A DNA stretch of 61,806 bases, counting the filler, from Sphacelaria rigidula (taxonomy: Eukaryota): assembly GCA_964200075.2 (NCBI GenBank). It is 5 parts of 5 records of this genome, joined end to end, with 100 filler letters (N's around TTAATTAATTAA, not from the genome) between each part and the next. Parts side by side here need not be neighbours in the genome. Positions count along the whole stretch, not along the records: positions 49,527 to 61,806 come from CAXNAA020003929.1; 4 more parts are not named here. One strand, 5' to 3'. Below are positions 12,222 through 61,806 of this stretch, one piece after another; position 1 is the first letter of the stretch, and each line of letters begins with the position of its first letter. The notes under the pieces were generated by a model that searched no databases, was not told the DNA's origin, and worked only from the letters and a program-made list of their open reading frames with translations. The position numbers and the translations under genes are program-made.

Positions 12222-12283
<62 letters not shown>
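12222..12283. repeat. (TG)n microsatellite at contig end
   Basis: Direct read. Confidence 0.95.
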
Positions 12284-12383: not shown

Positions 12384-12486
12384 CCAAATACCCCCCCCCT
12401 ATCGTAGGATGACTCAGTGAATGTCACGAGAACATGAGAGCAAAGCAGTTGAAAACAATTGGACATCGCCTTGGCCTTAGTCACAA

Positions 12487-12590: not shown

Positions 12591-12671
12591 GAGCAGCAGC
12601 CAACACAAGACCGTGCAATGAGCCATAGGCGAATTGAACAAGGCACACACGTGCAAGAGTCGGACAAACTA

Positions 12672-12883
12672 TGATTCGAAAATTACTTGCTTTTAGTATG
12701 ATGAGTCGACTCGTGACGAATCAATCCCTAGGCTTTATTTCAGCGTTGCAACCCAGGTACACGCAGCCCAGACACGTGGCATGACGCAAAAGTTGTGTGG
12801 ATACCCCTTGGACCAGCGATCAACTTTTGTCTCCCTTTTGGGCAATCAGGCCGAGGTAATCGTGATGATTTGTCCTAACCGTG
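12672..12883 (+). repeat. ~230-bp dispersed repeat copy
   Basis: High similarity to 41277-41513 and to the reverse complement of 1-66. Confidence 0.9.
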
Positions 12884-19780: not shown

Positions 19781-19904
19781 TCCACACTCTAGACAAATGT
19801 TACAATAATAGTCCATTGCCTCAGCAACAGACATGGGGAGAGAACTATCATACATTTCATCGGACACGATAGATGGTGAATCACATCTATCAATATGTAT
19901 TTCC

Positions 19905-20050
19905 CAATATTGTTTTTTCCCCTAGAACCCCAACATTTTGGATATCGAGTCCAAATTTGTACGGCGTGTAGTAGTTGTCAAAAGCTATCCGTAGGTGAAA
20001 AAATGGAACCACGTTTCGGAGATTTGGTGTGGATACGAAAATTTGTATTT
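19905..20050. repeat. Fragment of the foldback family seen at 43261-43527
   Basis: GGCGTGTAGTAGTTG...AGGTGAAAAAATGGAACCA is similar to 43472-43520. Confidence 0.6.
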
Positions 20051-20844
20051 TCCGGTATTTTCATCCACAACTAAAGATCCACCCCCAATTTGTAAGATCC
20101 CGTGTTTGTTGCGGATTCCTGCAAAACACAAGCGTTCCAAAATTGTAGAAATGTTTGTCATATATTCACAAGTAGTATCATTATATACCCACCGCATGTC
20201 CACCTACGGCTTGTCTACCGTACCTTAACGGAGTATAGTATGCTCTACACGTAGTATGTTGCGATGTAGGTGTGGTGATAGACGACGGAGAATATTCATA
20301 GGTAGACACTGTTTACCACAGTAGGTACATATGTCTTGAGAAACCTGCGATAGCAAACTTCAGGGACGACCGCTAAGCGCAACGAAAGCCAACTCGGGGT
20401 GACGGGTGAGATCGGGCATCGACAGCGGCTCCACCAATCGCAGCCAATGTAGGTTTGCTAGACACCAGAGAAGGTGGTGTAACCATACATCGGTAAAGTT
20501 GTAGCGTGAGGTTAACAAGCTAGACGGCACTCTAAACCGTTGCGCGGCAGGCGTTTCTCCGCTACCATCCCTGCTCAGAGTAAGGTTCCCCCGATGCACA
20601 TAGTTGGATCCGTAATCGTACCGCTCCCTCTGACCCCCACGGGTCCGTAACATACTCGTGGGAGTAGCGGCAGGTCGCCCCAAACACTACAGAATCGATC
20701 TCCCCGAGCAGCACATCCCAACAGTGTCCCTCGACCCCCCCGCTCCGAGGTAAGCGTATCAGACAAATATGAAATAGGTGGGTAAATCAGAGAAACAGGA
20801 GATGGTGGACGTCCTGCTGGGCTCTCTCGGCACTGGATTGTTCT

Positions 20845-21880
20845 CCACGAATCGGGTAAGATGTGTTGACATGCAGTTGCAAGAGGCTCAAGAGATCAAG
20901 CAGTCATCAAACGGCCATGTGGTAGGGGCGTGCGGTAGACCCATGGGACGAGGTGGAGATCAACTTGCCCACGATTGAGGTAATGTTGCATTCACATACA
21001 TACATATGTCGAGCACTTGACCTCGCGTCCCGATTTCCATTTGGTTTTCCACAGCCATCGAAACTAGTCATGGGGTAGTCCGTGCCCCTGCGGAATGTGC
21101 CTAAATTCCTGTGTCCGTCAAAAGATTCGCTGGACAGGGGCGAAGAGTTTAGCGTGGAGGTAGTCACCCATTTCCGCAGGTGACTGAAAGAAGACATCAC
21201 TTTCCGAAGCGTCCGATCTCCCACGCGGTCAGTACGCAATCGTAAGACCAGGAGGATGGCTACTGGACATGTTGTCGGAGCTTTGCAAGTCGTGATGTCA
21301 GGTGGGGTGAGCACCGTTCAGTGACTCTTGAAATCAAGAGCACATTGCTTGACACGCTACTTACCTCTCCGAGTTGCCGTGTCGATGCAAAACCACGCAC
21401 ATCTCTCAGCTGACTTGCACCTATTTCACAAGAAGCAGAACCGAGTATAGTACTGGGCGCTTTCGTGTAACAGCGCAAACACCTATGCGAGGTAAGACTG
21501 TTGATGGATCCGGAGAGTGAGATATCAATGTCGGGACGGCAACGGCAGGGAACTGCAGCACTAGTGCACGATATCTTGAAATTTAAGAAAGATCGATCAC
21601 GGCATGCAGTCTGGAGGTGGTGATGCAAGGACACAAAATACGTACGCGTAAGATAGTTCGCCAGATGTTGCATCACATCTCAATTACCCGTCTCACGTGA
21701 GATATTCAATCGCTGATGGGTTCGCCTAGTTCACTTGAACACTAGACTTCGAGGCGACGCCAACCTTTACCTCGAAACCTCATTTCCTCACCTAGACTAC
21801 CGCGAGTTGATATCCAGGAAACCAATCTGGTGGAATGGCGAGGATTGGTCCAGGATAAAGCAATGTCGGAGCAGCTACCA
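20845..21880 (+). pseudogene. Degenerate Gypsy integrase with possible chromodomain remnant
   Basis: Manual translation gives VLTCSCKRLKRS...PWDEVEINL...ALDLASRFPFGFP...DRGEEFSVEVVTHF...GGWLLDMLSELCKS (zinc-binding and DDE core pattern) with stops, and LVEWRG at ~21827. Confidence 0.7.
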
Positions 21881-23699
21881 GGGAGCAAAGTCATGGAAAG
21901 CCTCACACTTCCACGAGTGGACGAGTTCCACGCCCTTTGGCATCTGCACCACTCAGCCGAGGTATCAAATATGCCATCCCGCCCAAGCATGCCATGTCCC
22001 TCAGTCGCGCAGTGATGCTCTCAACTTGTTCCCCATAGGTTTCGCATTCTGAGAGGCTTTCGACGAAGCTGAGCAAAAAGCACAAGTGTTCGACGGCGGC
22101 AGACACTTCTGGAGAGTGACAGCACGACCGAGACTACGCGGAATCTTCACGTAAAGAGCTCCAACAAGTGGCCCAGACGAGCGAGCCTGTCCATTGAGCG
22201 AACGAAGGCGACAAAAAAAATAATATTGTACGAAGGAGAGAGGATGAGACCGTTTTGTGCTGCACTACAGAAACGAGTAGCGTTTTGTATTTTCTTCCTT
22301 ACTTTTTTCAGGAATGAGCAGTTGTTCAGTACTGTTTGTTTCTTTTTGTTGGAACAGCTGTTCAGTATATCTTTCTTTCCTACTTTCTTCGGGTCTGTAT
22401 TCACTCGTGTTTCCCCGTTGATCATGAGCTCGGTTATATATCTTGTTCTCGTTTCCGTTTTTATTTCTTCATTTTTTAACGTTTTATTTTGACTTTATTG
22501 GGAAATGGGTTACTCGATGTTTTTGCCTCGTTTTTTTTTGGTCAGAATTTGCCCCTCAAGCCCCTATTTGTTCTCCTCTGTTCGGTTCTCTGGTCTAGAG
22601 TCCATGTTTTTCTTTTGCTTTCGTTGGACCTATTCCTCTTTCTCGTGCCAGTTCTTATTTACTTCGATGCCATTTCTCGTAATTTGTTTTCCCGTATCGT
22701 GGACCTGGGATGTTATTTATACTTTTGTTTCATGTTTTGTTTTCCTCTTTCCCTGCTCCGTCTCAAAAGGGATGCGTGGTCAATGGTCAAATGACTAAGG
22801 CAAGCAACAAATGAGTACGCCCCCCCCTTCCCCCCTTCTTCTTGCGGGCCTGGTTTGTCCCTCTAGCACTATTTTTCGGTTTCTCTTTTCCTTTTCACGT
22901 CTCCGCGGGGTTGATTTTGCTCCGCTCTTTGGTATTTCTCCGGTCTTGCATCCCATGGAGATTTATTGTATATTTTTCTCTTGATTGTGTCAGACCTGAT
23001 CCTACCCGTTGTTTCAGGTATCCGGTCCGTTCATCACGTTTCTTCGCCCTCGAGGAACGATTGATCTAACTTCAGGGCGCCCCACCCTTCCCATGTAGAA
23101 ATATTCATGCGTCAGCATTGCACAATAGGGGGGGCGCCGAGTACCTGCTGGGACACTGTATCGTGACTGAACTGTTGATCTACGATATAGTCCCCCAGTG
23201 TCCAGTAGGTTAGCGGGTACTGGTCGATAGGAGATAAAGCGTGCAGCGCTCCTATCAACCAGTTAACGCTTTCTTGAGGTATTTTTTAGTGGGTCAGCTC
23301 TTTGCAAGTCCTACACTATCTGGGATTGATGTAACCAGTCAGGAGTGTCGAAGCGCCGTTACTATCTGAGACGAGTCACATTCTATTTTCGATGATTCCT
23401 GTTCTCCAGTCTAACTGAGATCCCGGGAAAACATGGCACATGCGAAAGCAGTCGCCGTGATCCGAAAGGGCGTGAGAGATTTTTTCCCCAAGTAATGAGG
23501 TTTTTTCCTGAATACCAGGTTTTGCCCATCTTCTGATTTCATGGTGAGTTTTTCCCGCGGTTAACCCTAGCCCCGAAATCTTGCGGTTTTCTCGTCATTG
23601 GCGTGATATCAGGCTGATGGCATAGAGACTTGAGCAAATCACCCCCGCCTTCAATTTAGCTGCGACTTTCCTCATCTTGCATGAGCAGCGTACACAAAG

Positions 23700-24665: not shown

Positions 24666-24765
24666 NNNNNNNNNNNNNNNNNNNNNNNNNNNNNNNNNNN
24701 NNNNNNNNNTTAATTAATTAANNNNNNNNNNNNNNNNNNNNNNNNNNNNNNNNNNNNNNNNNNNN
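24666..24765. other. Artificial contig linker
   Basis: N44-TTAATTAATTAA-N44. Confidence 0.98.
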
Positions 24766-35300: not shown

Positions 35301-35508
35301 TGTAATGCGTGAGAGGACCGCGTGCGTTTTGGACCGCATCGCAGATTACAACACCATAGGATCGACGTTTTTTAAGCCTGCTGGGCCAGTCCCTGCAAGG
35401 ACCGCGCCCCCGACCCTAACCAACCCTAACCCTAACCCCAACCCTAACCATGGGGGTGTTTAAACTTTGATGCTGTCCAAAAAGCACGTGGTCCGCTCGC
35501 GCAGTACA
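35301..35508. mobile_element. MITE with TGTA...TACA termini, ~55-bp TIRs, 4-bp TSD (ACGC) and internal (CCCTAA)n
   Basis: TIRs are shared with 46881-48016. ACGC at 35297-35300 and 35509-35512. Telomere-type repeats at ~35413-35449. Confidence 0.8.
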
Positions 35509-37046: not shown

Positions 37047-37146
37047 NNNNNNNNNNNNNNNNNNNNNNNNNNNNNNNNNNNNNNNNNNNNTTAATTAATT
37101 AANNNNNNNNNNNNNNNNNNNNNNNNNNNNNNNNNNNNNNNNNNNN
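37047..37146. other. Artificial contig linker
   Basis: N44-TTAATTAATTAA-N44. Confidence 0.98.
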
Positions 37147-37217
37147 AAAAAAAAAAAAAAAAAAAAAACGAAAAAAAAAAAGAGCAGGAAGGGGGGGGGA
37201 ATGGGGGGGGGGGGGGG

Positions 37218-37256
<39 letters not shown>

Positions 37257-38884: not shown

Positions 38885-39010
38885 CTGAATATGCGACAAC
38901 CTCGCACGGTTGTGGAGAGTGGTGGCCAAATCAGGGTGCGCCAGGGCAAGATCCTTTTCCCGGATCGATTGGCACCGCTCGTACAGTCGCGCAGCCTCGT
39001 CAAACTTGCC
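38885..39010 (-). CDS. Single-TPR exon (126 nt, phase 0-0), cassette 4
   Basis: CTGCAG|GKFDEAARLYERCQSIREKDLALAHPDLATTLHNRARLSHIQ|GTGGGA; a 42-aa kinesin-light-chain-type TPR. Confidence 0.85.
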
Positions 39011-39330
39011 CTGCAGAGTCGTGCACGACGCAACAACACCCTGCAACTGTCAACGTCGAATATACTACGGCGGCGTATGGTGAGTGAAGGCTCGACGCTA
39101 TTTCTCTATGTTTCGGGCGACGGGTACGTTCTATAGCTGGCCATCGCTGTCTGTACGGTGACAACCGTACCGCACCTGAAATCGACGGTTCACAGCTACG
39201 ACGGCTTGGCCTCGTCGCTCCGGTGCAACGATGGCGTGCAGAACCAACGCAACAATACCAACATCACACAAAGTTTCCCACGCGCTGACTACAGCACACA
39301 CGACCACGAGACATTTCTATCGGCTCCCAC

Positions 39331-39456
39331 CTGACCATGCAACAACCCCGCATGGTTGTGGAGAGTGGTGGCCAAATGAGGGTGCTCAGGGGCCAGAACC
39401 GCTTCCTGTATCGCCTGGCACCGCTTGTACAGTCGCGCAGCCTCGTCATACTTGCC
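39331..39456 (-). CDS. Single-TPR exon (126 nt, phase 0-0), cassette 3
   Basis: CTGCAG|GKYDEAARLYKRCQAIQEAVLAPEHPHLATTLHNHAGLLHGQ|GTGGGA. Confidence 0.88.
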
Positions 39457-39748
39457 CTGCAGTGCAGTACACCATGCAGCAACACCCTGCAACTGTCACC
39501 GTTGGGTCTACTACGGCGGCGAGACGCGCGCGCCACACCTCGCCAAGGGTATGCAGCTGACCAACGCTGTCTGTACAGGGACAACCGTACCACACCCGAC
39601 ATCGACGTTTCATAGCTACACGACTTGCCTCGCCGCACGAAATCTCTGGGGCGACGATGGCGTGAGGGACCAACGCAACAACATCAGCACTACACAACGA
39701 TTCTTGCACGCTGACATGCCACTACGAGAGAAAGACAATGCTCCCCAC

Positions 39749-39874
39749 CTGAGCTTGTACCACGTTCGCATGATTGTTGAGAGTGGTGGCCAAATCAGAG
39801 TGCGCCGGGCCAAGAACCGCTTCCTGTATCTCCTGGCACCGCTCGTACAGTCGCGCAGCCTCGTCAAACTTGCC
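39749..39874 (-). CDS. Single-TPR exon (126 nt, phase 0-0), cassette 2
   Basis: CTACAG|GKFDEAARLYERCQEIQEAVLGPAHSDLATTLNNHANVVQAQ|GTGGGG. Confidence 0.88.
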
Positions 39875-40168
39875 CTGTAGTGCAGTACACCACGCAGTAG
39901 CACCCTGCAACTGTCGACGTCGAATCTACTACGGCGGCGAGACGCTCATGCCACCGCCCCGCACGGGTGTGCGGCCGGCCAATGCTTCATGTGCAGGGAC
40001 AACCGTACCACACCCGACATCGACGTTTCATAGCTACACGACTTGCCTCGCCGCACGAAATCTCTGGGGCGACGATGGCCCACACAACCGGCGAATAATG
40101 TCAACACCACACGACACTGTTCATGCGTGGAGCACACACAACTATGGGAAAATTCTATCGGCTCTCAC

Positions 40169-40294
40169 CTGAGCTTCCAACACTTTCGCACGGTCGTGGA
40201 GCGTGGCGGCGTGATCAGGGTGCTCCGGGTCAAGCACACTTCCCTTCATCGCCTGGCACCGCTGGTACAATAGTTCAGCCTCGGTCAACTTGCA
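40169..40294 (-). CDS. Single-TPR exon (126 nt, phase 0-0), cassette 1
   Basis: TTGCAG|CKLTEAELLYQRCQAMKGSVLDPEHPDHAATLHDRAKVLEAQ|GTGAGA. Confidence 0.82.
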
Positions 40295-48016: not shown

Positions 48017-48531
48017 ACGTGCCGACCACGCACCGCCAGGTGCGTTTACGCTACGGACAATTAGGAATATGAGCACAAGAGCCATTGGTCGGTACTTACC
48101 GTGGCTAGTGCTGCCATGTGCCTCACCTCGTGCTGTGATGATCACTGACTCGAGCGCTTGCTCTCCCGATGCTCTTTTGCCCCGAGTACCTGACGTGAGA
48201 GCTGTTGTTGCTTATTGTGGGAGCAGGCTGTTCAAAATAGTTGTGTCTACGAACAGAAGCCGACAGCATGAGCGGGGGAATTGCGGGGTTTTCGATTATT
48301 CTAGGAAAGTTACTGAGAACGTTTCCCGTGATTGAAAAAAGGTAAATTGTTCCGAGTTCACATTTTCATAACTGTGAGCGTACATATTGCGGATCTTTCG
48401 CCGACAGTAGGTGACAGGGCAGTGTTCTTCGCGCTACTCTCGTACTCGTCTCCCTCATCTCTTTTGACTAAATTTCCTACGTGTGGCCAGTAATCATGAA
48501 TGACTTGAAACACATCTTCTCACTTACTTAA

Positions 48532-49426
48532 CCCTTTTGGGACTGGCAATGGAAAAGTGCTGATTTGGAGGTGCTGGTTTTGAAGGACATATGGTTGATA
48601 GTTTTCAGCTCCTACACAGCACTATTTAGCCCAAGGCGTGTTTTTCAGACCCGCGCAAGTAAAACGTGGAAAAAAAGAAGGTTCTCTATTTTTGACTGTG
48701 CCGAAGAACGTTTTTTGTTCAATCCATCGGACTTTTTCAGCACCGCCAGTATGTGCGGAGGCGTGCTGACCTACAACAAACATAGTGCGGTGACAGTCTC
48801 GTACGACATTGTTCCCCAAGTACTGGGCCCACCCCTCTCAGTCATGCAGGCCATCCACACACAAGCATGGATGCCGCTGAGGAAAATATAGATACCGCTG
48901 AGGAAAATATAGAAATCATATCCGTGGTACAGACAGTGTTCCCGGGACCGCCAAATACAAAACGTGGGTCTGATATCGTGAAAGCGGTAAGCGATGAGGA
49001 CCGGAGCTTCTTTGAGCAGCTTGCACAAGAAGACCGTGGGGCAGCTGAATCGTCCACAACGCCAACGGCTTGGCGCCAAGCTGTGAGACCGTTTGGAAAC
49101 TGCGCTTATGAGTCCTTGTTGACGGCAGCACTGGGCCGCAATACGCCGGTGCCCGATGATGGGCGCATGGCACAGCTCGTCGCGAAGCTGAAAAAAGCCG
49201 TATGCGAGTACATGATGCAATCCATATGCGGTACTGTACTGTACAACACCCCTGACGAGGAGGCAAATCAAGACGGACATGGCATCACGGATTACGGCAG
49301 AAACATGGCGAGGCACCTGTTTCTCACGGACACGTACGAACACGAGCCGGATATCGAGGTGGAGAGGGACACCATCGGATGGTTTAGGAGGCATCTGAAG
49401 TGGGTGGCAGAACGTGAAGGTCTGTG
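48532..49426 (+). mobile_element. Left end of a piggyBac-type element (TTAA|CCCTTTTGG), truncated by contig end
   Basis: TTAA at 48528-48531. The first ~170 bp are homologous to the first ~170 bp of the complete MITE at 59466-59933. Confidence 0.7.
48867..49426 (+). CDS. OTU-like cysteine protease domain protein (3' truncated)
   Basis: Open to the contig end. VRPFGNCAYESLLTA resembles the OTU Cys loop (V.xDGNCxFxAl) and is followed by LKKAVCEYM (cf. LR..v..ym helix). The His motif is not reached. Confidence 0.55.
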
Positions 49427-49526
49427 NNNNNNNNNNNNNNNNNNNNNNNNNNNNNNNNNNNNNNNNNNNNTTAATTAATTAANNNNNNNNNNNNNNNNNN
49501 NNNNNNNNNNNNNNNNNNNNNNNNNN
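49427..49526. other. Artificial contig linker
   Basis: N44-TTAATTAATTAA-N44. Confidence 0.98.
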
Positions 49527-50199
49527 GGCGTGTTTTATAGCGTCATCGCCAACCGGCGCCAACCCCATTGGGGGTCCGCCCTTACAAAGCTAGGATGATT
49601 CCGGGGGGGGGGAGGGTGTTAGTCTAGACATAGCACACCTTCGTGTTTTCTCCCAGAATCGGTACCATTGCCATGCAGTGATACAAAAATAGAGAACCGT
49701 TCATATTTTACTTTATCCTTGGCTTCCATCGCTTCTGCACGTTGGTTCGTCCCTGTTATCTCTTCCTGTCTCTCGCTCCTTCTCACTCGCCTTTTTTTCC
49801 CTTCTCAAGTCTTCGTGCTCATGGTAGCAGTATCTGCTCCTTGCTTCCGTAGGGCAGTTGGATGAAAGCTCGTGCCTATCTGGTGTGGCTCCGAAGTAGC
49901 TGAGCCGCACTTTGCCTCCACGACCATTTTGTTTGTTTCGTGTATCGGTGTACATGCTTTTTGCGCACGGTCTTTTCACCTGAAGCCATGCTGCAGGGGT
50001 GGGCCATTTCTGGTTGATTTTCCATCGGGGCCGGTGTTTGTTTTTCTTCCTAGTTTTGCTTTTGTTTTGACTCTTTCTCTCTCTTTTTTTTCCGCACACC
50101 TTTTTCAGTTCGCTGCTTTTCTTATTGTTCGTTTGTTGTATGTTTGATTTCTTCTTGTCCAGCGTGTGTTTCCGTTTTGTTGGCCCTGGGTACGTCTTG

Positions 50200-51124
50200 C
50201 CGTAAGTTGCTCTGTGATCGCACAGGGCGTGAATTTCGCACAGGGGTTGTGAGGACGCACCCCTGTGCGATCAAAAACACGGTTTGAAATGATTGAATTG
50301 TTTTTTCGCACAGGGGGCGTTGTTTTCACACAGGGGTGTGATCTCAAGGATAAAATGCGTCTCAGCCACCTTCCGGGCGTGAGGACGCGTGCGCGCGGAT
50401 GGGTCTTTGGGGCGGACAGCCTGAGTTGCAACGAGTTCTGTCTTTATTCCACTGGTCGTCATGGGGCTTGTCTGGACTACGCACTTCGGTGTGGCAGTGC
50501 AGACACAAAAAACATACGGAGTGGTTTTTTTTTTCAATTTATTTTACTCCAGTTCTCGTCGTGCACCTTGGATGAAACCACCAAAGCCGAAACCTTTCAC
50601 CAAACGCCAACACCGACGGAAGGAACGAAGCCCGAAAGCAAACGCCTACTGGCACCGAACGATATTTCTTGCAATCAACCTCGTCTCTCTCTTCGACATT
50701 TCGTGTAACGGTCTACCGGTACCACGACAACTACCGTAGGCTCGTGCGGTGTGCTTGATGCTGTCGAGCTGTGGCTGTGTGCCCGTGTGTACTTGCTACG
50801 TTTCAGGCATCTTCAGACCTTGTTCCTACGGGAGTACTGTTGCAGATTGTTCCTTTATACCGGCGAAGACTTACTCAGTATTGCACATGGCGGGGTTATC
50901 GCACAGGGTGAGCGTTCAAAGACCCTGGTGTCATCGAAATTATTTACTCAATATCGCACATTTCGTTGAGATGGCACAGGGCTGTGCGATGGAAAAGCAG
51001 TACCAAATGATTTACTTCGATTTTCGCACAGGGGTCGTGAGAACGCACCCCTGAGCGGAAAAAATCAAGTTCGAAAACTCAAAAAATCGATCGCACCCCT
51101 GTGCGATCACAGAGCAACTTACGG
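50200..51124. mobile_element. Non-autonomous Tc1/mariner-pogo-like DNA transposon
   Basis: Perfect 28-bp TIR CCGTAAGTTGCTCTGTGATCGCACAGGG. Flanks are TG/TA (TA TSD with one change). Subterminal CGCACAGGGG repeats. Confidence 0.85.
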
Positions 51125-52740
51125 TACCTTCTAATCATGGCTATAATAGATCCCTCGGGGATAAGTTGATGTACATCTGTCACGTAAAACAAAACATGTA
51201 CACTCGTATCGAGGAATGGCCATTTTTGACAACTCCCCGTACCGTTTCAATTCCGAAAGTATGATCACTTGCCTGGATACACCGGAATCACGCACACCCG
51301 AAGTTGAATCTTCACGTACTTATTCACCATTGACCCTTTGGCCGCGAGCATATTTCATCTGTTGAGTCAGCATCAATTGAAAATGACTGCATGACCAGAT
51401 GACCTACCCTCGCGATCGAAGGGTTAACCAACACAACGTCCAACCCTACCCTCTCATTTCGGGGAATATTTGCGAGTCTCCCCACACCCACCCCACCCGC
51501 TAGACACCCCTCAACAACCCGCCCCATACACGGGAGATGCGACTTCCCTAAGTTGTATCGTCAGTGTTCACCGGCATGATTGGCGACGTTGACTGTCTCC
51601 TACGCGCCTTGTCTGGGAGTAAACACCACTTTCCCCCCGATGAGTCACGCTATGCAAAGTTGTTCTGCCCGTCGAGCACATTGGCTTTGCCCGTTATGCA
51701 AGCGCGCCGAGCACATATTCCCAGCCGCCGTAGAAGAAAGCACGGTAGACTCTCAGTAGATTATCCTGACTGTGCCCTGATGTCATTTTATTGATGAAGG
51801 TGACCATAATCTGTTCAGATATTACCCATACACTCAAGCATAATGAAAAAAAAGCCGGCACACCTGCGAGAAACGTCATGCAGGTCGAATGCATCAGTTG
51901 GGGACACTTGACATACGTCCCCCTAATATACTCCCACCCCTCCCCTTTTCCCCGCCACGAGCCCGGCGTCTCGAGGGATCCAACCCATCTTTGTTTCATG
52001 CTGTACGTCACATCTTGGTACCGCGGGTTGGATCGGCACTCCCATACAGCGTCTACTCACGTCGTCACACTTTCAACAAAGACAATCACATGATCCTCTG
52101 GAAGAACAGTATCTGCTGGGCTTCGAATCCCAAACTTTGCCCTACCCGGTTTCGAGGTGAAACAGACGGACCACCGGGGCGCGGCGCTGTGCCATGATTG
52201 AAAGTAGCTCAAGATGTATCTTCACACTGCCCGACTGTGAGCTTCTCTCTACAAGTCTGAGGGCCATCACGATGCATCCGCGGGTCATGTGAACCTACTT
52301 CATTTGATGAGCATACTCTTTCTCACAAGCATAGGCTATGGACACAGATGCTCACAACCCATCGCCATTTAATTGCGGTTTTTCTGAACCCTCCACGTTT
52401 CGAAGACTGATTCTCGGAATAAAAAGCACAACAATCGATTTTGTAGCGCCAAAGCACACCCGCGATAAACGACGCGCTCGAGTGAGAAGGTCACGCTTCA
52501 CCTTTCAGGAGCAATGAAAAATTACTCTCTAGTTGCGAGCAAATCGAGCTTGCAAGGGAACCAACCAACAATGTTGTACAGGGAGCAAGCTCTGTTACCC
52601 TGCGCGAGGGTACGCCAACTTGAATTATTGCGGCAAAGGAACACGAACACAGGACGACGCGAGCAGCGGAAATCGGGCAAAACATCACGCCCCACCACTT
52701 CCGCATATGTGTGACACAAGGCACATTATAGGTCTACTAA

Positions 52741-53147
52741 TAGATCTTGGAAATGGTTTGTCTAACCATAAACCCGTTGAATGGTTACGTGTAGCGCACT
52801 CATTAACCAGTAAAATGGTACATAAGGGTTTGGTCACCGCGAGCCAAAAAGCCCCCCTCCCCCGGCAGAGGGGCCCCCGTCGAAGCCGCCCCCGGAGGGC
52901 CCTGCTGAAGGCGCAGGGCCGGAGGCACGTTTTTACACGATCTGGCTTCACTAGAGCTGAAAAATACGTTAAAAATGGGCCAATTTTCAAGGGCTATACG
53001 TAGCATACGAAGCCGGTAACGGCTCACAAAGCCGGAAACGGTAAATAATGGTTTGGAAGGATTATCCAAAGTTTTCATACAACCATTACCATTATGACCA
53101 TTATAATGATAATGGCCAGTTAAAACTGGTACCATTTCCGAGCTCTG
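52741..53147. mobile_element. hAT-type MITE
   Basis: Imperfect TIR TAGATCTTGGAAATGGT / ACCATTTCCGAGCTCTG, 8-bp TSD TCTACTAA (52733-52740) / TCTATTAA (53148-53155), and subterminal AATGGT repeats. Confidence 0.75.
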
Positions 53148-53859
53148 TCTATTAATCCATCGTTTTTTCAAGTGATCAAGTTTCGACTCGCCAGCGACCG
53201 ATTGGGAGCAAGCTCCGTTCACCCCGCGGTATGCGCGCCAGCCACACATGAATCCTTTCAGCATGAGAAGGGCGATGGTATGCCGACGCGACACATCTGT
53301 GTGGATAGGACGAGCACACAGCACGCTCTCCAGACGTTCAGATGAACAGTCAAATCTGCAACGACAGTACTGCGAGCGCTGCTCCATTCGTCATCTTCTT
53401 CACATCTCACAAGCTTTTTGCTACACTAGTCTAGTTCATATTGCCAGTGGTTAGAAACACCATAGTCCGAGGTTGTCTCAATCTGCCGTTTGTAGTAGTC
53501 CTTATAGGCCCACCCTCGTTTCTCCCCGTTGTTGTCTAAAGGTGATGCTGTGGGTGTTTTTCGGTCGACTGTTGTTTTGCACGGCGTGTGTGCAGGTTTT
53601 GTACGGCATTTGTTTCACCCATGATTTCAGGTTCAACCCAAACACATGTAGCATTTCGAGACCGAGAGGGCAAGTGTTATCGGGCATGAATTTTTCCTCG
53701 AGAGCCATGTGATAACTTATTTAGATGAAGGATGGTAGCTCGTCGAAGCATAACATTGATGATTCCAAAAGTTGAAGTTTTCTCCCTGCAGCTGACCGTC
53801 CTCTCTTGTGACAGTTCCTCCCCGATATCCCCATCGTTTGTTTTGGTCTGTCCAGAACT

Positions 53860-56800
53860 ATGCTGTTCAGGATCAAGATCGCATTACGAGAGACACTGGA
53901 GAAACGCGGGGGGGGCATGGAGAATCTCCTTGCACGTACTTCTCTGCCGTCACCAAAGCTTTCTGGAGTGCCAGCGGGTGTTCCAAAAGCGAAGGGCTGG
54001 CATGTCGTGCGCAACGCGGTGGTGGACGACGTATACAATCACTTTGTCGCCGAGGGCAGTCCGTGGATGGCGGGGCTAGTGGGTTGTAGCGGGTCAGGTA
54101 AGACCACCACTGCGGCCATGGTGGTTGGACATACGATGGGTGTGGTCCGATCCCTGGACGGGGAGACACAGCAGCAGGCTCTCGAGCGGCTGAGTCGAGT
54201 GCGGGCCCTGTTCTCAGATGGCGTGGTGTGGCTCCGCGTGGGTAGGGATGCGGCCGAGCGTCTGCCAGGTTTATTGCGGAACCTGGCGCAGATGGTGTAC
54301 GAGAACGTGCTGCGCTGCAGGGGCTATCCCCCCAGGCAGTCGCCGACCGATCCCAAGAACGGCACAGCATATGTCCGAGAGGCTATGGTTACGGGCTTGA
54401 ACCGCCAAGGTCTGCACTGCCTGCTTGTGGCGGACGACGTGTGGGAGTCGGAAGTTGTGCAGGAGTTTCGGAAGACCGGCATGCGGGTGCTGCTCACGAC
54501 CCGAGATTCACTTCTGGTAGATAACGCCGGGGGAAGAGTAACCATGGTGGAGCGGCTGAGGAGGGAGGAGGCGGAGGCGCTGGTGGCCAGTGCCGCCGAG
54601 CTTCCTGAGGGCGCTCATTTGCCTGAACCTGTGCACGAGTTGTTCGAGCTGTGCGACTACATGCCCATGTACGTGGAGTCCGTGGCAAGGTGGACGGTGG
54701 TGAACGGGAGGAACGATGAAGCTTCATGGTCTAAGGTGATTTCTGTCATCCGGGGCCATGTGGAAAACGTTCAGGAAGAAAAACACCGTGGTCATGATGA
54801 TGGTGTCAGCGCATATAGAGACGCCATTGCGAAGAAACGCATGGCGGTTCTCCAAGCCGGTTTCGAGTGCCTTGGGGCCGAGGATTCGCAGAGCCGGTGG
54901 CTCTACCTGGCCTTGGCAGTGTTGCCATGCGATCACGATTTTAAGGTGTATGAGGCTTGCGTGTTGTTGTTCGGCCACAAGGACTCAGAGCACGAACTGG
55001 AGCAGGCTGGGCAGGCGGTGGCAGCTTTGGAGCGGTGGGCGATCATCACCGCGGCAGGACCTGGTCTGTTTCGCATGCACGGTGCTCGTTCAAAATTCGC
55101 TAGGCGGACTTTTGTGGATGCTCGTGAGGATATATGCCGAGACGTTGTGGAGAGATGGCAAAACTATTTATCCACTTTGGAGGTGGTGCGGTCAGTTGAA
55201 GTATACGGCCTTCTGGGTCTGTGGCAGGCGGTTGAGCTCGTCGGGGGGAAACGGATGCGTCAGTTGCAACCGTACGATTCTGTGCTGTTTGCGCTAGACT
55301 CCTCAGATCCGTTGTATTTCCGTTCGGTAGAGGCTGTGACAAAGCTGTATAACGCGGACTATGATCTTAATGGTGCTCAGGCCGTGATGCGGGAGGTATG
55401 GGAACGATGCGAGGGCAACCCGGAGGTGAATTTGCATGCTTCTCTCACTGCCCTCTGGTACTGTGAGCTGTCGGTGAGAGACCGAGATCTAGTGGAGAGT
55501 CAGCGTTTTCGAGATTCAATGGAACCGTTGGTAGACGTCGCAAAAAAGCGGTGGAGATACGATAGCCGAGCCGCTGCTACTTGTGAGTATTGGCAATCCC
55601 TTTACACGCTTGGTTCGTGTTACCATACGTTGGAGCGAGTGGATGAAGCTGAACTGTGGTTGAAGCGGGCGCTGCAGGTAGCGGAGGAAGCGAACCTCGA
55701 TGCTGACTCCGCAAAGGTTTCGGACACACGGTTAATGCTACCGGAATGTGCAAGGGAATCTGGACGATTGCAAGAAGCGGAAGTTTTGTTTCGCCAGTCG
55801 CTGGAGAGCAAAGAGGCTAGGCTAGGGAAGGGTGCTGCACCTGTGACGCTAGGGCTGTATAAGCTGGCGAGTTGTTCGACTCAACTGGACCGGGCGAGAG
55901 ACGCGGAATCATTGTTCCGGCGAGCCCTGGCGATCGCTGAGGCGAGGTTGGGGACGGACGATGTGACGTTGGCCTCCACTTTAACTGAACTGGCCACGTG
56001 TATGACTCAACTGGACCGGGCGGAGGTAGCGGAGGCGTTGTTCCGGCGAGCCCTGGCGATCAAGCAGGGGAGGTTGGGGAAGGAGGATGTGCAGTTAGCT
56101 TCTACGCTGCACGAATTGGCCAGGTGTTTGACTCAACTCGATCGGCCGGGGGAAGCAGAGACATTGTTTCGGCGAGCCCTGGCGATCAAGCAGGGGAGGT
56201 TGGGGAAGGAGGGTGTGCAGTTAGCTTCTACGCTGCACCAGTTGGCCAGGTGTTTGACTCAACTCGATCGGGCGGGGGAAGCGGAGGCGTTGTTCCGGCG
56301 AGCCCTGGCGATCATGCAGGGGAGGTTGGGGACGGAGGATGTGCAGGTAGCGCATACGCTGCACAAGTTGGCCAGGTGTTTGTCTCAGCCGGACCGGGAG
56401 GGGGAAGCAGAGACGTTGTTGAGGCGGGCTCTTGCGATTGAGGAGGCGAGGCTGGGGGAGGAGGATGTGCAGGTAGCATACACGCTGCACCAGTTGGCCA
56501 GGTGTTTGACTCAACTCTATCGGGCGGAAGAGGCGGAGGTGTTGTTCCGGCGAGCCCTGGCGATCATGCAGGGGAGGTTGGGAGAGGAAGATGTGCAGGT
56601 AGCTCATACGCTGCACGCCTTGGCCCGATGTTTGACTCAACTCGACCGAGCGGGGGAAGCAGAGACGTTGTTCCGGCGAGCTCTGGCGATCAAGGAGGCG
56701 ACATTGGGAAAGGAGGATGTGCGGGTAGCTTATACGCTGCACGAGTTGGCCAGATGCCTGACTCTACTCGACCGGGCGGGGGAAGCAGAGGCGTTGTTCC

Positions 56801-57471
56801 GGCGAGCCCTGGTGATCAAGGAGGCGAGGCTGGGGACGGAAGATGTGCAGGTAGCGCACACGCTATACGAGTTGGCCATGTGTTTGACTCTACTCGACCG
56901 GGCGGGGGAGGCAGAGGCGTTGTTCCGGCGAGCTTTAGCGATCAAGGAGGCGACATTGGGGACGGAGGATGTGCAGGTAGCAACTACGCTCTACAAGTTG
57001 GCCACATGTTTGACTGAACAAGACCGAGCGGGGGAGGCGGAGGTATTGTTCCGGCAAGCTCTGGCGATCGCGGAGACGAGGTTGGGGACGGAGAATATGG
57101 GGGTAGCTTATACGCTTCACGCGTTGGCAACGTGTTTGATTCCACTGGACCGGGCGGAGGAGGCAGAGGTGTTGTTTCAGCGAGCTTTAACGATCAAGGA
57201 GGCGACGTTGGGGACGGAGGATGTGCGGGTTGCAAATACGCTGCACGAGCTGGCCAGATGTTTGACTCTACTGGACCGGGAGAAGGAGGCGGAGGCCTTG
57301 TTTCAGCGAGCCCTGGCGATCAAGGAGGCTAAGTTGGGGACGGAGGATGTGCAGGTAGCGACTACGCTGCATGAGTTGGCCATATGGTTGACTCTACTGG
57401 ACCGGGCGAAGGAGGCGGAGGCGTTGCTCCGGCGAGCCCTGGCGATCAAGGAGGCGAGGTTGGGGACATAA
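53860..57471 (+). CDS. NB-ARC-TPR (STAND/NLR-like) protein; the true 5' end may lie in upstream exon(s), with a likely acceptor at 53870/53871
   Basis: 1203-aa ORF with Walker A GCSGSGKTT (54082-54108), VVWLRVG, Walker B LLVADDVW (54421-54444), VLLTTRD, GLPL-like CDYMPM, MHD-like RMHG (MHG at 55075-55083), then about 14-15 42-aa TPRs. Confidence 0.92.
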   Translation: MLFRIKIALRETLEKRGGGMENLLARTSLPSPKLSGVPAGVPKAKGWHVVRNAVVDDVYNHFVAEGSPWMAGLVGCSGSGKTTTAAMVVGHTMGVVRSLDGETQQQALERLSRVRALFSDGVVWLRVGRDAAERLPGLLRNLAQMVYENVLRCRGYPPRQSPTDPKNGTAYVREAMVTGLNRQGLHCLLVADDVWESEVVQEFRKTGMRVLLTTRDSLLVDNAGGRVTMVERLRREEAEALVASAAELPEGAHLPEPVHELFELCDYMPMYVESVARWTVVNGRNDEASWSKVISVIRGHVENVQEEKHRGHDDGVSAYRDAIAKKRMAVLQAGFECLGAEDSQSRWLYLALAVLPCDHDFKVYEACVLLFGHKDSEHELEQAGQAVAALERWAIITAAGPGLFRMHGARSKFARRTFVDAREDICRDVVERWQNYLSTLEVVRSVEVYGLLGLWQAVELVGGKRMRQLQPYDSVLFALDSSDPLYFRSVEAVTKLYNADYDLNGAQAVMREVWERCEGNPEVNLHASLTALWYCELSVRDRDLVESQRFRDSMEPLVDVAKKRWRYDSRAAATCEYWQSLYTLGSCYHTLERVDEAELWLKRALQVAEEANLDADSAKVSDTRLMLPECARESGRLQEAEVLFRQSLESKEARLGKGAAPVTLGLYKLASCSTQLDRARDAESLFRRALAIAEARLGTDDVTLASTLTELATCMTQLDRAEVAEALFRRALAIKQGRLGKEDVQLASTLHELARCLTQLDRPGEAETLFRRALAIKQGRLGKEGVQLASTLHQLARCLTQLDRAGEAEALFRRALAIMQGRLGTEDVQVAHTLHKLARCLSQPDREGEAETLLRRALAIEEARLGEEDVQVAYTLHQLARCLTQLYRAEEAEVLFRRALAIMQGRLGEEDVQVAHTLHALARCLTQLDRAGEAETLFRRALAIKEATLGKEDVRVAYTLHELARCLTLLDRAGEAEALFRRALVIKEARLGTEDVQVAHTLYELAMCLTLLDRAGEAEALFRRALAIKEATLGTEDVQVATTLYKLATCLTEQDRAGEAEVLFRQALAIAETRLGTENMGVAYTLHALATCLIPLDRAEEAEVLFQRALTIKEATLGTEDVRVANTLHELARCLTLLDREKEAEALFQRALAIKEAKLGTEDVQVATTLHELAIWLTLLDRAKEAEALLRRALAIKEARLGT

Positions 57472-60400
57472 AATATGCAGGTGGCACTGACGCTGCACGA
57501 GTTGGCCAGATGTTTGACTGAACTGAACATGGCGAACGAGGCGGAGGCGTTGCTCCAGCGTGCCCTGGCGATCAAGGAGGCGAGGTTGGGGACGTAGAAT
57601 ATGCAGGTGGCACATACGCTGCACGAGTTGGCCAGATGTTTGACCATACTGGATCGAGCGGGTGAGGCGGAGGCGGTGTTCGGGCGAGCCCTGGTGATCA
57701 AGCAGGACAAGTTGGGGACGGAAGATGTGCGGGTAGCAACTACGCTCTACGAGTTGGCCAGATGTTTGACTAAACTGGACCGGGCGGGGGATGCGGGGGT
57801 GTTGTTGTGGCGAGCTCTGGCGATCAACGAGGCGAGGTTTGGAACGGAGGATGTGCAGGTGTCTTACACGCTTCACGCGCTGGCCATGTGTTTGACTCAA
57901 CTGGACCGGGCGGGGGAAGCAGAGGCGTTGTTCCGGCGAGCCCTGGTGATCAAGGAGGCGAGGCTGGGGACGGAAGATGTGCAGGTAGCGCACACGCTGT
58001 ACGAGTTGGCCATGTGTTTGACTCAACTGGACCGAGCGGGAGAGGCGAAGGCGTTGCTCCAGCGTCCCCTGGCGATCAAGATGGTTAGGTCGGGGTCGGA
58101 GAATATGCGGGTAGCACATACACTGCACGAGTTTAACAGATGTGTGACTCAACTGGACCGGGCGGAAGAGGCGGAGGCGTTGTTCCGGCGAGCCCTCGCA
58201 ATCAAGGAGGCTAGGTTGGGGACGGAGGATGTGCAGGTAGCAACTACGCTGCACGCGTTGGCCATATGTTTGACAGTACTCGACCGGGCGGGGGAAGCAG
58301 AGGCGTTGTTCCGGCGAGCCCTGGCGATCAAGGAGGCTAGGTTGGGAACGGAGGATGTGCAGGCAGCTTATACGCTGCACGAGTTGTCCAGATGTTTGAC
58401 TCTACTCGACCGGGCGGGGGAAGCGGAGGCGTTGTTCCGACGAGCCCTGGCGATCGAGGAGTCTAAGTTGGGGACGGAGGATGTGCGGGTAGCATATACG
58501 CTGCATGAGTTGGCCATGTATTTGACTCTACTCAACCGGGCGGAGGAGGCGGAGGCGTTGCTCCAGCGTGCCCTGGCGATCAAGGAGGTTAGGTTCGGGA
58601 CGGAGAATATGCAAGTGGCACTTCCTCTGCAGGAGTTGGCCAGATGTTTGACTCAACTGGACAGGGCGGAAGAGGCGGAGGCGTTGCTCCGGCGAGCCCT
58701 GGCAATCAACAAGGCGGGATTGGGGACGGAGGATGTGCAGGTAGCTTATACGCTGCACGAGTTGGCCAGATGTCTGACTCCACTCGACCGGGCGGGGGAA
58801 GCAGAGACATTGTTCCGGCGAGCCCTGGCAATCAAGGAGGCGAGATTGGGGACGGAGGATGTGCGGGTAGCTTATACGCTGCACGAGTTGGGCAGATGTT
58901 TGACTCAACTGAACCGGGCGGGGGAGGCAGAGGCGTTGTTGTGGCGGGCTCTTGCGATTGAGGAGGCGACGTTGGGGACGGAGGATGTGCGGGTAGCTTA
59001 TGCGCTGCACGAGGTGGTCACATGTTTGACTCAACTGAACCGTGCGGGGGAAGCGGAGGCGTTGTTGTGGCGGGTTCTTGCGATTGAGGAGGCGAGGTTT
59101 GGAACGGAGGATATGCAAGTGTTTTACACGCTTCACGCGCTGGCCATATGTTTGACTCAACTGGACCGGGCGGGGGAGGCGGAGGCGTTGTTCCGGCGAG
59201 CCCTGGCGATCGAGGAGGCTGGGTTGGGGACGGAGGATATGCGGGTAGCAAATACGCTGCACGAGTTGGCCAGATGTTTGACTCAACTGAACTGAGCGGG
59301 AGAGGCGGAGGCGTTGTTCCGGCGAGCCCTGGCGATCAAGGAGGCGAGATTGGAGACGGCGGATGTAGAGGTAGCACATACACTGCACGAGTTTAACCGA
59401 TGTTTGACCCGACTGGACCGGGCGGAAGAGGCGGAGGCGCTGTTGTGGCGAGCTCTGGTTATTAACCCTTTTGGAACTCACAATGGAAAAGTGATAATTT
59501 GCAATTGACGTTTTATGAGCAAGACATGGCTGATGGTTCACGGCTGAGACGCAACAACATTTACCCAACGCGTATTTCTCAGACCCGTGCGAATGACAAG
59601 TGGAACAAAAAATATTTTCTATTCACCGATGTGCCGTACTAAACCCTGGAGCCCATTGCTGTTTTTTCATGGAATGTTTCATGATGTTTGTTCTAATGAT
59701 TGTCGATGGATACAATTGGACACACTCCATCTGTTGCGTGGTATAATTGGACAAACCTCACCCGACCTCTCCAGGGAAGACACCCGCGGCGTGTGCAACT
59801 GGATTCTTCTCCGGTCTTCCATCATAAAATAGTTGGTGCCTGCCTTTTCTGCTTTCATTTTTTTCTCTCTGTGTCAGGACTTCTCATAATGAGGCGTTTG
59901 GCCCGGGGACAGAAGGGGAGGGTTCCAAAAGGGTTGAGGAGGCAAGGTTGGGGACGGAGGATGTGCAGCTAACAACTACGCTGCACGAGGTGGTCACATA
60001 TTTGTCTCAACTGAACCGGGCGGGAGAGGCGGAGGCGTTGTTGTGGCGGGCTTTGGCGATCAAGGAGGCGAGGCTGGGGACGGAGGATGTGCGGGTAGCA
60101 CATACGCTGCACGAGTTGACCAGATGTTTGACTCTACTGAACCGGGTGGCGGAGGCGGAGGCGTTGTTCCGGCGAGCTCTGGCGATCAAGGAGGCGAGGT
60201 GGGGGACGGAGGATGTGATGGTAGTGCATACGCTCTACGCGTTGGCGAGATGTTCGACTCAACTGGACCGGGCGGGAGAGGCGGGGGCGTTGCTCCAGCG
60301 GGCTCTCGCGATCGCTGGGGCAAGCTTGGGGACGGATGTGCGGGTAGCTTACACGCTTCGCGCGTTGGCGAGATACTCGACTCAACTAGACCGGGCGGGG

Positions 60401-61439
60401 GAGACGGAGGCGTTGATCCAGCGTGCTCTGGCGATCAAGGAGGCTAGGTTGGGGACAGAAGATGTGCGGGTAGCTTACACGCCTCACGAGTTGGCTAGAT
60501 ATTTGACGAAACAAGGCCGGGCGGGGAAGTTGAAGGCGTTGCTCCTCGAGCTCTGGCGATCGAGGAGGTGAGGATGGGGATGAAGTATGTGCAGGTAACT
60601 TATACGGTGCACGAGTTGGCCTGTTGTTTGACTCCACGGGTCCGGGCGGGTGAGTCGGAGGCGTTACGTCGGCGAGCAGTGGCGATCGAGGAGGCCAGAA
60701 TGGGGGCGGAGGATGTGCGGGTAGGCGGTATGTTAAACGCGTTGGCCGGAATTTTTACTTCAAGGGACCGGGCGGGGGGGGGCGGAGTTGTTGTTCCGGC
60801 GAGCTTTGGCGATCGATGAGGCAAGGTTGGAGACGGAGGATGTGCGGGTAGCTTATACATTACACGATATGGCGAGGCGTTGTCCCGGCGAGCTCTGGCG
60901 ATCAAGGAGGCGAGATTGGGGATGGAGGAGATACGCTGCACGGGTTGGCCAGATGTTTGACTCAACTGGACAGGGCGGGGGAGGCAGAGGCGTTGTTCCG
61001 GCGAGCTCTAGCGATCGAGGAGGCGAGATTGAGGACGGAGGATGTGGAGGTAGGTCGTACGCTACACAAGCTGGCCAAATGTTGGACTCTACTGAACCGG
61101 GCGGGGTAGGCGGGGGCGTTGCTGTGGCGAGCTCTGGCGATCAAGGCGGAGAGATTGGGGACGGGGGATGTGCAGGTAGCAAATACGTTACACGAGTTGA
61201 CCAGATGTTTGACTCTACTCGACCGGGCGGGGGAAGCGGAGGCGTTGCTCTTGCGAACCCTGGCGACCGAGGAGGCGATATTGGGGACGGAAGATGTGCG
61301 TGTAGCTTATACGCTGCAAGAGTTGGGCATATGTTTGACTCTACTGGGCCGGGTGGGGGAGGCGGAGGCGTTGTTCCGGCGAGCTTTGGCGATCAAGGAA
61401 GTGAGATTCGGGGCGGAGGATGTGCAGGTAGCGTCTACA
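57472..61439 (+). pseudogene. Post-stop continuation of the TPR array
   Basis: Same frame as the ORF, with TAG 57595-57597 and TGA 59293-59295, then a MITE insertion and frameshifts distally. Confidence 0.8.
59466..59933. mobile_element. piggyBac-type MITE (468 bp) inserted in TPR unit 29
   Basis: TTAA|CCCTTTTGGAAC ... GTTCCAAAAGGG|TTGA. Removing 472 bp restores the 126-bp register and the reading frame. Confidence 0.9.
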
Positions 61440-61687
61440 ATCCGGCCACCCGACGCATCATGGATAGCAGGAACATCGACTTCATCTAGACGCCGTCGCG
61501 CCTGGCGCCGACGGGGGAGCGACAGCTTCTGATACACCCTTGAACACGTTGCGGCGCACTTGTATTCCGGTAGCACGGTGTGAAGCAAAATGAGTGAGTT
61601 TTATCTGTATCGGTAACAAGCGCGTCCGAATAACCGTTGCTGCTCACAAACATCATTTGAATGGAATTGCGTGGAAGAAATGGGCCA

Positions 61688-61768
61688 AAATCCCCCCCCC
61701 CCCTCCTGTCGTAGCATGACTTATGCGTCTATGTGAGAGTCATCCTACGATAGGGGGGGGGGGTATTT
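61688..61768. repeat. Small hairpin/MITE with poly-C/poly-G ends; the same end occurs at 12385-12415
   Basis: C-run-TGTCGTAGCATGACT vs AGTCATCCTACGATA-G-run. 12385-12415 is the reverse complement of the right arm. Confidence 0.65.
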
Positions 61769-61806
61769 GATTAAAAAAAAAAAGAGGCTCATAAGTGTGT
61801 CAGATA

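Follow-up and report, generated by a model that had tools for sequence, protein, structure and literature searches.

The locus treated here raises the question of how a long array of tetratricopeptide repeats (TPRs) can be built within a single exon, and of what has become of the gene that carries it. It is an NB-ARC-TPR gene of the brown alga Sphacelaria rigidula and lies towards the end of the window, by which we mean the whole 61,806-nt stretch of DNA that was analysed. Brown-algal NB-ARC-TPR genes have been discussed as receptors whose diversity arises from alternative splicing, from exon shuffling, and from exons that hold one repeat each. A preliminary description of positions 53860-61439 had claimed an NLR-like (NOD-like receptor-like) gene, in which one uninterrupted frame runs from the NB-ARC domain into ~40 near-identical 126-bp units without introns, and had derived from this a fungal-style diversification by unequal crossover or conversion. 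We propose, with a probability of about 0.62, that the locus was once a single-exon NB-ARC-TPR gene with ~41 units, which arose by in-register duplication, and that it is now truncated, decaying, and probably transcribed.

An intron-free array with a broken frame

For the read evidence, the short contigs of four sequencing runs (X1, X3, X4, and X6, from three studies) were placed on the gene and summarized in 30 depth bins. X1, X3, and X4 are DNA runs, X4 being an algal metagenome run, and X6 was guessed to be RNA. The gene and its contig have the following features.

49527-61806, no strand: contig with the NB-ARC-TPR gene, delimited by the spacer positions, with 4.3 kb of contig upstream of the gene
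53846-53859, + strand: candidate 3' splice acceptor, a pyrimidine-rich run ending in cag before the first ATG, predicted from the sequence and the X6 depth
53860-57471, + strand: remaining open reading frame (ORF) of 1,203 codons in one exon, with the NB-ARC domain, a helical linker, and 14.6 TPR units (ORF call, Pfam)
54016-54759, + strand: NB-ARC domain, aa 53-300 (Pfam; the invariant columns of the relatives' alignment, A1, are kept)
55075-55083, + strand: MHD motif, which reads MHG (D408G; motif pattern search)
55624-59458, + strand: proximal TPR array, with diverged leading units at 55624 and 55750, 28 indel-free 126-bp units from 55876, and a 29th unit represented by its initial 55-60 nt
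57469-57471, + strand: first in-frame stop, TAA, at repeat codon 28 (GAG or GAA in other units)
57595-57597, + strand: second in-frame stop, TAG, one unit further on and again at repeat codon 28
59293-59295, + strand: third in-frame stop, TGA, at repeat codon 6
59371-59877, + strand: GT..AG interval joined out in X6 only, absent from X1, X3, and X4
59460-59935, no strand: dispersed repeat of ~475 bp, resembling a miniature inverted-repeat transposable element (MITE) and inserted in a TPR unit (terminal inverted repeats, read depth, register)
59936-61438, + strand: distal decayed part of the array, ~12 units (Tandem Repeats Finder, frame reading)
61530-61532, + strand: stop closing the TPR-reading frame after the last unit, probably the ancestral gene end

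The NB-ARC domain was recognized by Pfam (PF00931; E 5.8e-13; 49.1 bits versus a cut-off of 23.5), and the same ORF matched TPR_12 (E 6e-101) and TPR_10 (E 3.6e-62). With these matches and the brown-algal placement given below, the assignment to the NLR-like NB-ARC-TPR genes stands. The P-loop (GxxxxGK[ST]) reads GCSGSGKTT at 54082-54108, the Walker B motif (hhhhDD) reads LLVADDVW at 54421-54444, and the TTR motif reads LLTTRD at 54490-54507. The reading frame opens at 53812 and the ORF has a second ATG at 53917; it is collinear with P0001, a partial S. rigidula protein (78.5% over 540 aa), and with P0002. Two antisense ORFs, 57394-58380 and 58528-59568 on the - strand, were set aside as presumed by-products of stop-poor periodic sequence.

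The TPR unit is 126 bp long, encodes 42 aa of TPR_10/TPR_12 type, and is repeated head to tail. Three period-126 arrays were reported by Tandem Repeats Finder, at 55865-59458 (28.5 copies, 81% matches, 0% indels, score 4015), 59936-60858 (7.3 copies), and 60931-61432 (4.0 copies), which together amount to 39.8 copies. The first 29 units adjoin without a spacer, and the units abut over 55876-59458 and 59936-61438. Since the array register continues across the inserted element (consensus position 60|61), the three arrays were once one array of ~41 units. The count of ~40 units of 126 bp with no introns between them was thus confirmed. The units are not near-identical, as had been claimed: across the 28 units, the mean pairwise identity was 0.80 for nucleotides (0.64-0.97) and 0.70 for amino acids, only 2% of the unit pairs reached 85% amino acid identity, and the best 252-aa window at lag 42 had an amino acid identity of 79%.

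The claims of an uninterrupted frame and of an intact giant exon had to be given up as well. Besides the in-frame stops at 57469, 57595, and 59293, the NB-ARC frame finally closes at 59506, inside the element inserted at 59460-59935. Behind it, the distal units are read in at least four successive different frames, with one 3-nt indel, several 1-nt indels, a stop at 61107, and two larger deletions at 60765-61082. The neighbouring units that bear the stops at 57469 and 57595 are 90% identical, which suggests that a stop-bearing unit was duplicated and that exchange continued after the truncation.

The inserted DNA is a high-copy, MITE-like, non-autonomous element, being small, multicopy, and noncoding, and having terminal inverted repeats. 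These repeats are 14 bp long, perfect, and located at 59464-59477 and 59922-59935, and all reading frames are closed in the element, which is non-TPR DNA. In X1, the depth of the three bins spanning the element (59374-60174, wider than the element itself) was 7,762-22,808 versus 72-376 elsewhere. The corresponding depths were 1,242-2,141 versus 9-55 in X3 and 3,958-9,876 versus 20-127 in X4, so the excess was 50-200-fold in three DNA runs from two studies. Moreover, reads leave the element at 59458-59462 and 59935 into many unlike flanks. It is the combination of the inverted repeats, the depth excess, and the unlike flanks that leads to the classification as a high-copy MITE-like element. No clear target-site duplication was seen at 59459-59463 or 59936, ~5 nt at the left edge being off consensus. 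A partial, weaker copy of the element is present at 48528-48690.

In X6, which does not have the depth excess of the DNA runs, one contig joins 59368 to 59876 ('cut +2', depth 40.8, side 28). The donor of this joint, GAG|GTAGCA, lies in the last full unit, and the acceptor lies behind a pyrimidine tract inside the element. The spliced form runs into TAA TGA, and the TPR frame is not restored. With X6 taken as RNA, it is probable that the locus is transcribed through the array.

It could be argued that the gene is still an intact receptor of ~40 units, whose stops and frameshifts were introduced by sequencing or assembly or are spliced out within the array. Five array positions at which the contigs of at least three of the four runs contradict the window (see below) would fit such a view, as would the donor-like word AGGTAGC, which is found in 11 of the 28 units and of which one is used in X6. 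However, the insertion, with its perfect inverted repeats, unlike flanks, and depth excess, speaks against it, and contigs of X1, X3, X4, and X6 were placed on the distal units, including a 744-bp X1 contig (60171-60914) with 0 differences across the indel-bearing ones. No stop-skipping joint was reported, and the sole GT..AG joint runs into two stops. We therefore consider an intact receptor scarcely credible.

Read support and family placement

The window consists of separate contigs of ~12.3 kb that have been strung together, and is neither a single chromosome stretch nor a single locus. Spacer blocks of 100 nt, in which TTAATTAATTAA is flanked by N44 on each side, lie at 12284-12383, 24666-24765, 37047-37146, and 49427-49526. 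The pieces between the spacers are contigs sorted by length (12,282, 12,281, 12,280, and at least 12,280 bp), and the spacer carries stop codons. Since the contigs have been joined in this way, claims on neighbours across the spacer blocks are unsafe.

Within the gene, all 30 bins were covered by short contigs in X1, X3, and X4, and 28 of the 30 were covered in X6. Array-specific contigs with 0 differences span the unit borders at single-copy depth, the same as in the NB-ARC part; the X1 depth was 67 at 56961-57226 and 55.8 at 57615-57933, versus 70-85 over the NB-ARC part. The same array pieces recur in X3 and X6, which represent other samples and another study. The placed contigs argue against a gross chimera.

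Alternatively, several paralogous loci might have been collapsed or fused into one array by the assembly, for which one could point to the odd joints 60199-59169 (in X1, X3, and X6), 56203>58721, and 56077>58721, and to the shortness of the contig (12.28 kb). Such a mis-assembly is highly improbable in view of the exact contigs that bridge unit borders at single-copy depth and recur in X3 and X6. Furthermore, the 30-letter sides of the joints would correspond to the k-1 overlap of de Bruijn contigs, and no protein more than 56% identical to the array was present among the scored candidates of the searches described below.

As for the joints themselves, in a contig of X1, X3, and X6 (two studies), a jump from 60199 back to 59169 is bridged by 37 other letters. 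This contig may represent a second locus with related TPR units or another arrangement of the same locus. The joints 56203>58721 and 56077>58721 were considered as deletions of 20-21 units and rejected, because one side of each comprises only 30-33 letters and the register is shifted by 3 nt.

The closest relative of the N-terminal 600 aa was P0001 (77-79%), followed by Logan proteins (59-39%) and then by Ectocarpus and Scytosiphon proteins (36-39%). A maximum-likelihood tree of 38 NB-ARC regions was inferred (quick search, LG+G4, with support from the SH-like approximate likelihood ratio test, SH-aLRT, only). The window was sister to P0001 in this tree with an SH-aLRT of 100. Both belong to a 12-member clade, the other members of which are short (685-852 aa) and have few, diverged TPRs, and the neighbouring clades hold Ectocarpus, Scytosiphon, Nemacystus, and Cladosiphon proteins. 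Since the window NB-ARC is nested among brown-algal NB-ARC-TPR proteins, a contaminant origin appears unlikely. The data thus point away from both mis-assembly and contamination, with which the preliminary description had reckoned.

Searches with the TPR part were dominated by generic TPR proteins of bacteria and eukaryotes. In each search, the 8,000 candidates that had the most words in common with the query were scored, and identity reached at most 56% for proteins of 661-2,106 aa and 50% for shorter proteins. None of these scored candidates looked like a paralogue built from such units, and the window's own annotated proteins were likewise not among the matches. A scan of metagenome contigs with the NB-ARC alignment brought one distant locus, L001 (31% identity).

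History of the array and state of the gene

The identity between units was nearly flat with distance, from 0.82 at lag 1 to 0.79-0.81 at lags 2-14. Adjacent units were slightly more alike than after random reordering, the observed mean being attained in 1 of 10,000 permutations. The best partner of a unit was often 9-17 units away, one pair 9 units apart being 97% identical. Judged from this pattern, the array looks like the product of in-register duplication and exchange. The unequal crossover or conversion that had been proposed agrees with the register, the absence of indels, and the distant best partners, but the dS between units was ~0.40; most of the duplication and exchange is accordingly old, and recent or ongoing homogenization was not demonstrated.

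The dN/dS between units was 0.38 upstream of the first stop (11 units) and 0.43 downstream of the second (14 units). The units that are now left untranslated were thus under purifying selection and coded for protein until recently, and the stops are recent by comparison with the array.

The most variable unit positions were 3, 21, 34, 38, and 41, and to a lesser extent 8, 12, 15, 23, 24, and 31. The first five recur as variable in the more homogeneous arrays of Scytosiphon, Nemacystus, and Cladosiphon, and the variability (entropy) profile was correlated with the profile of each of five Ectocarpales arrays (Spearman coefficients of 0.34-0.51, p values of 0.026 to 5e-4). In an AlphaFold2 model of 11 units (mean predicted local distance difference test score, pLDDT, 92.6), helix A comprised unit positions 30-3 and helix B 7-25, and positions 31, 34, 38, 41, and 3 formed one stripe on the modelled helix A. 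From our own alignment to the canonical TPR numbering, we take positions 34, 38, 41, and 3 to be the canonical TPR positions 2, 6, 9, and 13, which would line the groove on the concave face. The piN was above the piS only at part of the sites (e.g., 3, 15, 21, 27, and 40), by which positive selection is not shown. Kinesin light chain TPRs were retrieved by Foldseek (29-35% identity, TM 0.57-0.87 on the target).

We propose the following course of events. A brown-algal NB-ARC-TPR gene of the STAND (signal transduction ATPases with numerous domains)/NLR-like type would have held its NTPase domain and the entire TPR sensor array in one exon. The array would have grown to ~41 units by in-register tandem duplication and unit exchange, through unequal crossover, slippage, or conversion, and this growth would have kept the conserved TPR scaffold while letting a few surface positions vary. 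The MITE-like element may then have split the array, whereupon the units behind it gathered frameshifts, and three nonsense mutations would subsequently have cut the frame to its present NB-ARC plus 14.6 TPR units. The product would be a shortened receptor at best, and more probably nothing functional.

Beyond the breaks, sequence comparison gave signs of relaxed constraint. The terminal branch of the window was 0.18, 2.3-fold longer than that of P0001 (0.077). An MHx motif was detected in 25 of the 38 NB-ARC rows, with 21 MHD, 2 MHA, 1 MHS, and the MHG of the window. The window alone departs at six columns at which the other 11 members of its clade do not vary, this change of the MHD Asp being one of the six, versus one such departure in P0001. 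Moreover, in a comparison of the window with a ~2% diverged copy in X4, 18 of the 22 listed coding differences were non-synonymous and 4 were synonymous (40 of 100 difference rows being listed). The locus appears to be damaged in the X4 strain or relative too, where the copy has lost the ATG at 53860 (A>G), contains one additional base after 53923, and carries the P-loop change G78R (54091).

At the 5' side, the X6 depth was 2.2 in 53500-53766 versus 33 in the next bin, and with the candidate acceptor before the first ATG, an exon upstream of 53860 is possible. With the N-terminal regions of 14 relatives as tblastn queries, nothing was matched in the 4.3 kb of contig before the gene (the best E, 0.098, came from another contig), and no N-terminal effector domain was found in this part of the contig. 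In P0012 (Ectocarpus sp. 12), aa 49-152 matched MLKL_N (PF22215; E 7.5e-6; 26.0 bits, below the cut-off of 27), so that some brown-algal members may carry a four-helix bundle of executioner-like type; the window ORF has no corresponding region.

A shortened but working receptor is the likeliest of the alternatives, although we regard it as unlikely. The 1,203-aa product would then be functional, and the units behind it would be 3' untranslated sequence, perhaps a silent conversion store. The 3.6-kb open frame with its intact P-loop, Walker B, and TTR motifs agrees with this, and the 14-15 TPR units exceed those of most relatives, such as the short proteins of the nearest clade. The probable transcription of the locus, together with the seeming duplication of the stop-bearing unit after the stop arose (the TAA/TAG neighbours), would also be in line with it. 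On the other hand, the MHD>MHG change, the five other unique changes, and the long branch speak against a working protein, and no effector domain was found upstream. The GT..AG joint, moreover, lies far 3' of the stop, which would make the transcript a likely target of nonsense-mediated decay.

The reading as a truncated and decaying gene must itself be weighed against several points. The remaining frame and its three intact motifs could still work; P0003 and P0007 have 9 and 6 unique departures, so that the six of the window are no extreme; the 18:4 ratio may stem from the decay of the damaged X4 copy; X6 is RNA only by guess; and the duplication mechanism is deduced from the pattern alone. 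The stops at 57469, 57595, and 59293 had no direct sighting in the reads, and no difference from the window was found at these positions among the 40 of 100 difference rows listed. Finally, at 56153, 56161, 56626, 58363, and 58495, every placed contig in at least three of the four runs differs from the window, and four of these five differences would alter an amino acid. They are likely assembly base errors or misplaced contig ends; base-level assembly errors thus exist.

The origin of the intron-free state is a separate matter. It could have arisen by retroposition of a spliced exon-per-repeat mRNA, in this gene or in an ancestor of its clade, which concerns the origin only and is compatible with later truncation and decay. 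No intron was seen across 7.6 kb of NB-ARC and TPR sequence and no upstream exon for an N-terminal domain was found, an A11 run is located ~245 bp past the ancestral stop, and the assembly holds a reverse-transcriptase fragment on another contig (19090-19872), all of which would suit a retroposed copy. A good splice acceptor directly before the ORF would not, and the nearest relatives begin at the same point, so that any such event would be old. At the unit border that corresponds to the exon junction, the sequence is CTG|GAC, which is neutral in this respect. On balance, we find retroposition doubtful.

Two repeat layouts and related systems

Exons with one TPR each are also present in the window, on a different contig from the gene.

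38885-40294, - strand: four 126-bp phase-0 TPR exons, at 38885-39010, 39331-39456, 39749-39874, and 40169-40294

Each of the four exons has a cag| acceptor and a |gtg donor, and the exons are 418-446 bp apart. They matched TPR_12 with E values of 1.2e-4 to 8.5e-9, and exon and intron recur together as a unit (direct repeats of 206-300 nt, 63-85% identical). The queries used did not reveal an NB-ARC next to these exons on their contig. Both TPR layouts, i.e., one exon per repeat and the intron-free array, are thus present in one assembly, adjacency not being shown. As for the exon-cassette route that the preliminary description had set alongside the array, the exons are real and belong to the same assembly, but they lie on a different contig and do not form one locus with the gene.

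A joint reading of the two layouts can be entertained. A brown-algal genome would then use two TPR architectures, and the units behind the stops would persist as a transcribed donor store for the translated part, which we hold to be rather improbable. By analogy with fungal NLRs of high internal conservation (HIC), the cassettes would be shuffled by splicing or exon exchange, whereas the arrays would change by unequal crossover or conversion; this part of the joint reading is equally tentative.

The gene has the same NB-ARC domain and C-terminal 42-aa TPR array as the Ectocarpus NB-ARC-TPRs (Zambounis et al. 2012, PMC3341825). In the abstract of that paper, each repeat is an exon, and in its results, each 42-aa repeat has its own 126-bp exon in 13 of the 24 genes, which form one clade. 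The one-repeat-per-exon premise of the preliminary description was therefore overstated, as it holds for 13 of the 24 genes. The borders of the four exons above (G-K-F/Y-D-E-A ... Q) fit the Ectocarpus exon signature GKYxEA...Q (PMC3341825). Unlike the one-repeat exons of the 13 Ectocarpus genes, at least 29 units of the window gene, and 41 before the insertion, are without an intron; where a gene of that clade has a 126-bp phase-0 exon per TPR, the window units abut. In Ectocarpus, the genes of the family are clustered and undergo birth and death, and 5 of the 24 loci were called pseudogenes (PMC3341825); the window gene is, in our reading, a decaying member. It is a single-exon-array structural variant of a known receptor-like family, caught decaying.

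The window gene shares the NB-ARC domain and an in-register tandem array with the fungal Pa_2_10340 and HET-E/NWD proteins, and with Pa_2_10340 also the TPR_10-type 42-aa units (PMC4986451, PMC13449251). In Podospora NB-ARC-TPR repeats, variability is concentrated at a few helix positions on the groove-lining side (PMC4986451), and the window array has in common with them the variability at few helix positions and the kinesin-light-chain-like TPR fold. However, fungal HIC requires that repeats share more than 85% of their amino acids over a stretch of 100 aa or longer (Dyrka et al. 2014, PMC4986451). The window array, with a mean of 70% and 79% in its best 252-aa window, stays below this value, and the fungal-style high internal conservation that had been claimed for it could not be retained. 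It also differs from the fungal HIC repeats in its dS of ~0.40, its broken locus, and its unrelated, stramenopile lineage. For brown-algal receptors, a 2026 paper on fungal NLRs speaks of 'a sort of weak HIC' and sets their exon route against the fungal one (PMC13449251).

Ectocarpales arrays were retrieved with the window repeat as the query, and are thus a biased sample; their homogeneity was scored as lag-42 identity. They comprised CAN0179829.1 of Scytosiphon promiscuus (P0035), P0077, P0094, and P0110 of Nemacystus decipiens, and P0042 of Cladosiphon okamuranus. P0035, P0077, P0094, and P0042 share 25-28 of the 42 consensus residues with the window unit, and P0110 shares 15. In the best 252-aa window, the lag-42 identity was 0.91, 0.90, and 0.84 in N. 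decipiens, 0.87 in S. promiscuus, and 0.81 in C. okamuranus, versus 0.79 in the window gene. Since these proteins have higher values, internal homogeneity is not special to the window gene. They fall in several NB-ARC clades other than that of the window. Before the NB-ARC domain, P0035, P0077, P0094, and P0042 have a similar region of ~150-190 aa and P0110 a different one of ~240 aa, whereas the window ORF has no such region.

The closest solved fold by sequence identity was the kinesin light chain TPR domain (PDB 7AI4, 5OJ8, 3EDT, and others). The kinesin light chain TPR binds peptides in its concave groove. Unlike the window gene, the kinesin light chain has 6 units, no NB-ARC domain, and no tandem homogeneity at the DNA level.

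A literature search brought no description of intron-free TPR arrays in brown-algal NB-ARC-TPR genes (Teng et al. 2023, Plant J., doi 10.1111/tpj.16131, was outside its scope), and the terms 'intronless' and 'single exon' are absent from the text of PMC3341825 and PMC11378527. The presence of ~41 units in what was once a single exon means that the exon-per-repeat layout is not obligatory for the brown-algal NB-ARC-TPR family, and that long tandem arrays can also arise in it by plain duplication at the DNA level. A comparison of the two layouts thereby becomes testable across many brown-algal genomes. The value of this particular copy is limited by its being broken and only moderately homogeneous, and more homogeneous arrays are already present in published proteomes.

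A few minor observations were made on the other contigs. The reverse-transcriptase fragment at 19090-19872 is a 260-aa open frame on the + strand that matches RVT_1 (E 7.4e-11) and represents a piece of a retroelement. Inside another contig, 6.5 copies of ACCCTA, a telomere-like hexamer, are located at 35413-35449 (81% matches). At the start of a further contig, a run of 35 A followed by a run of 65 G occupies 37147-37255, which looks like an assembly or library artefact.

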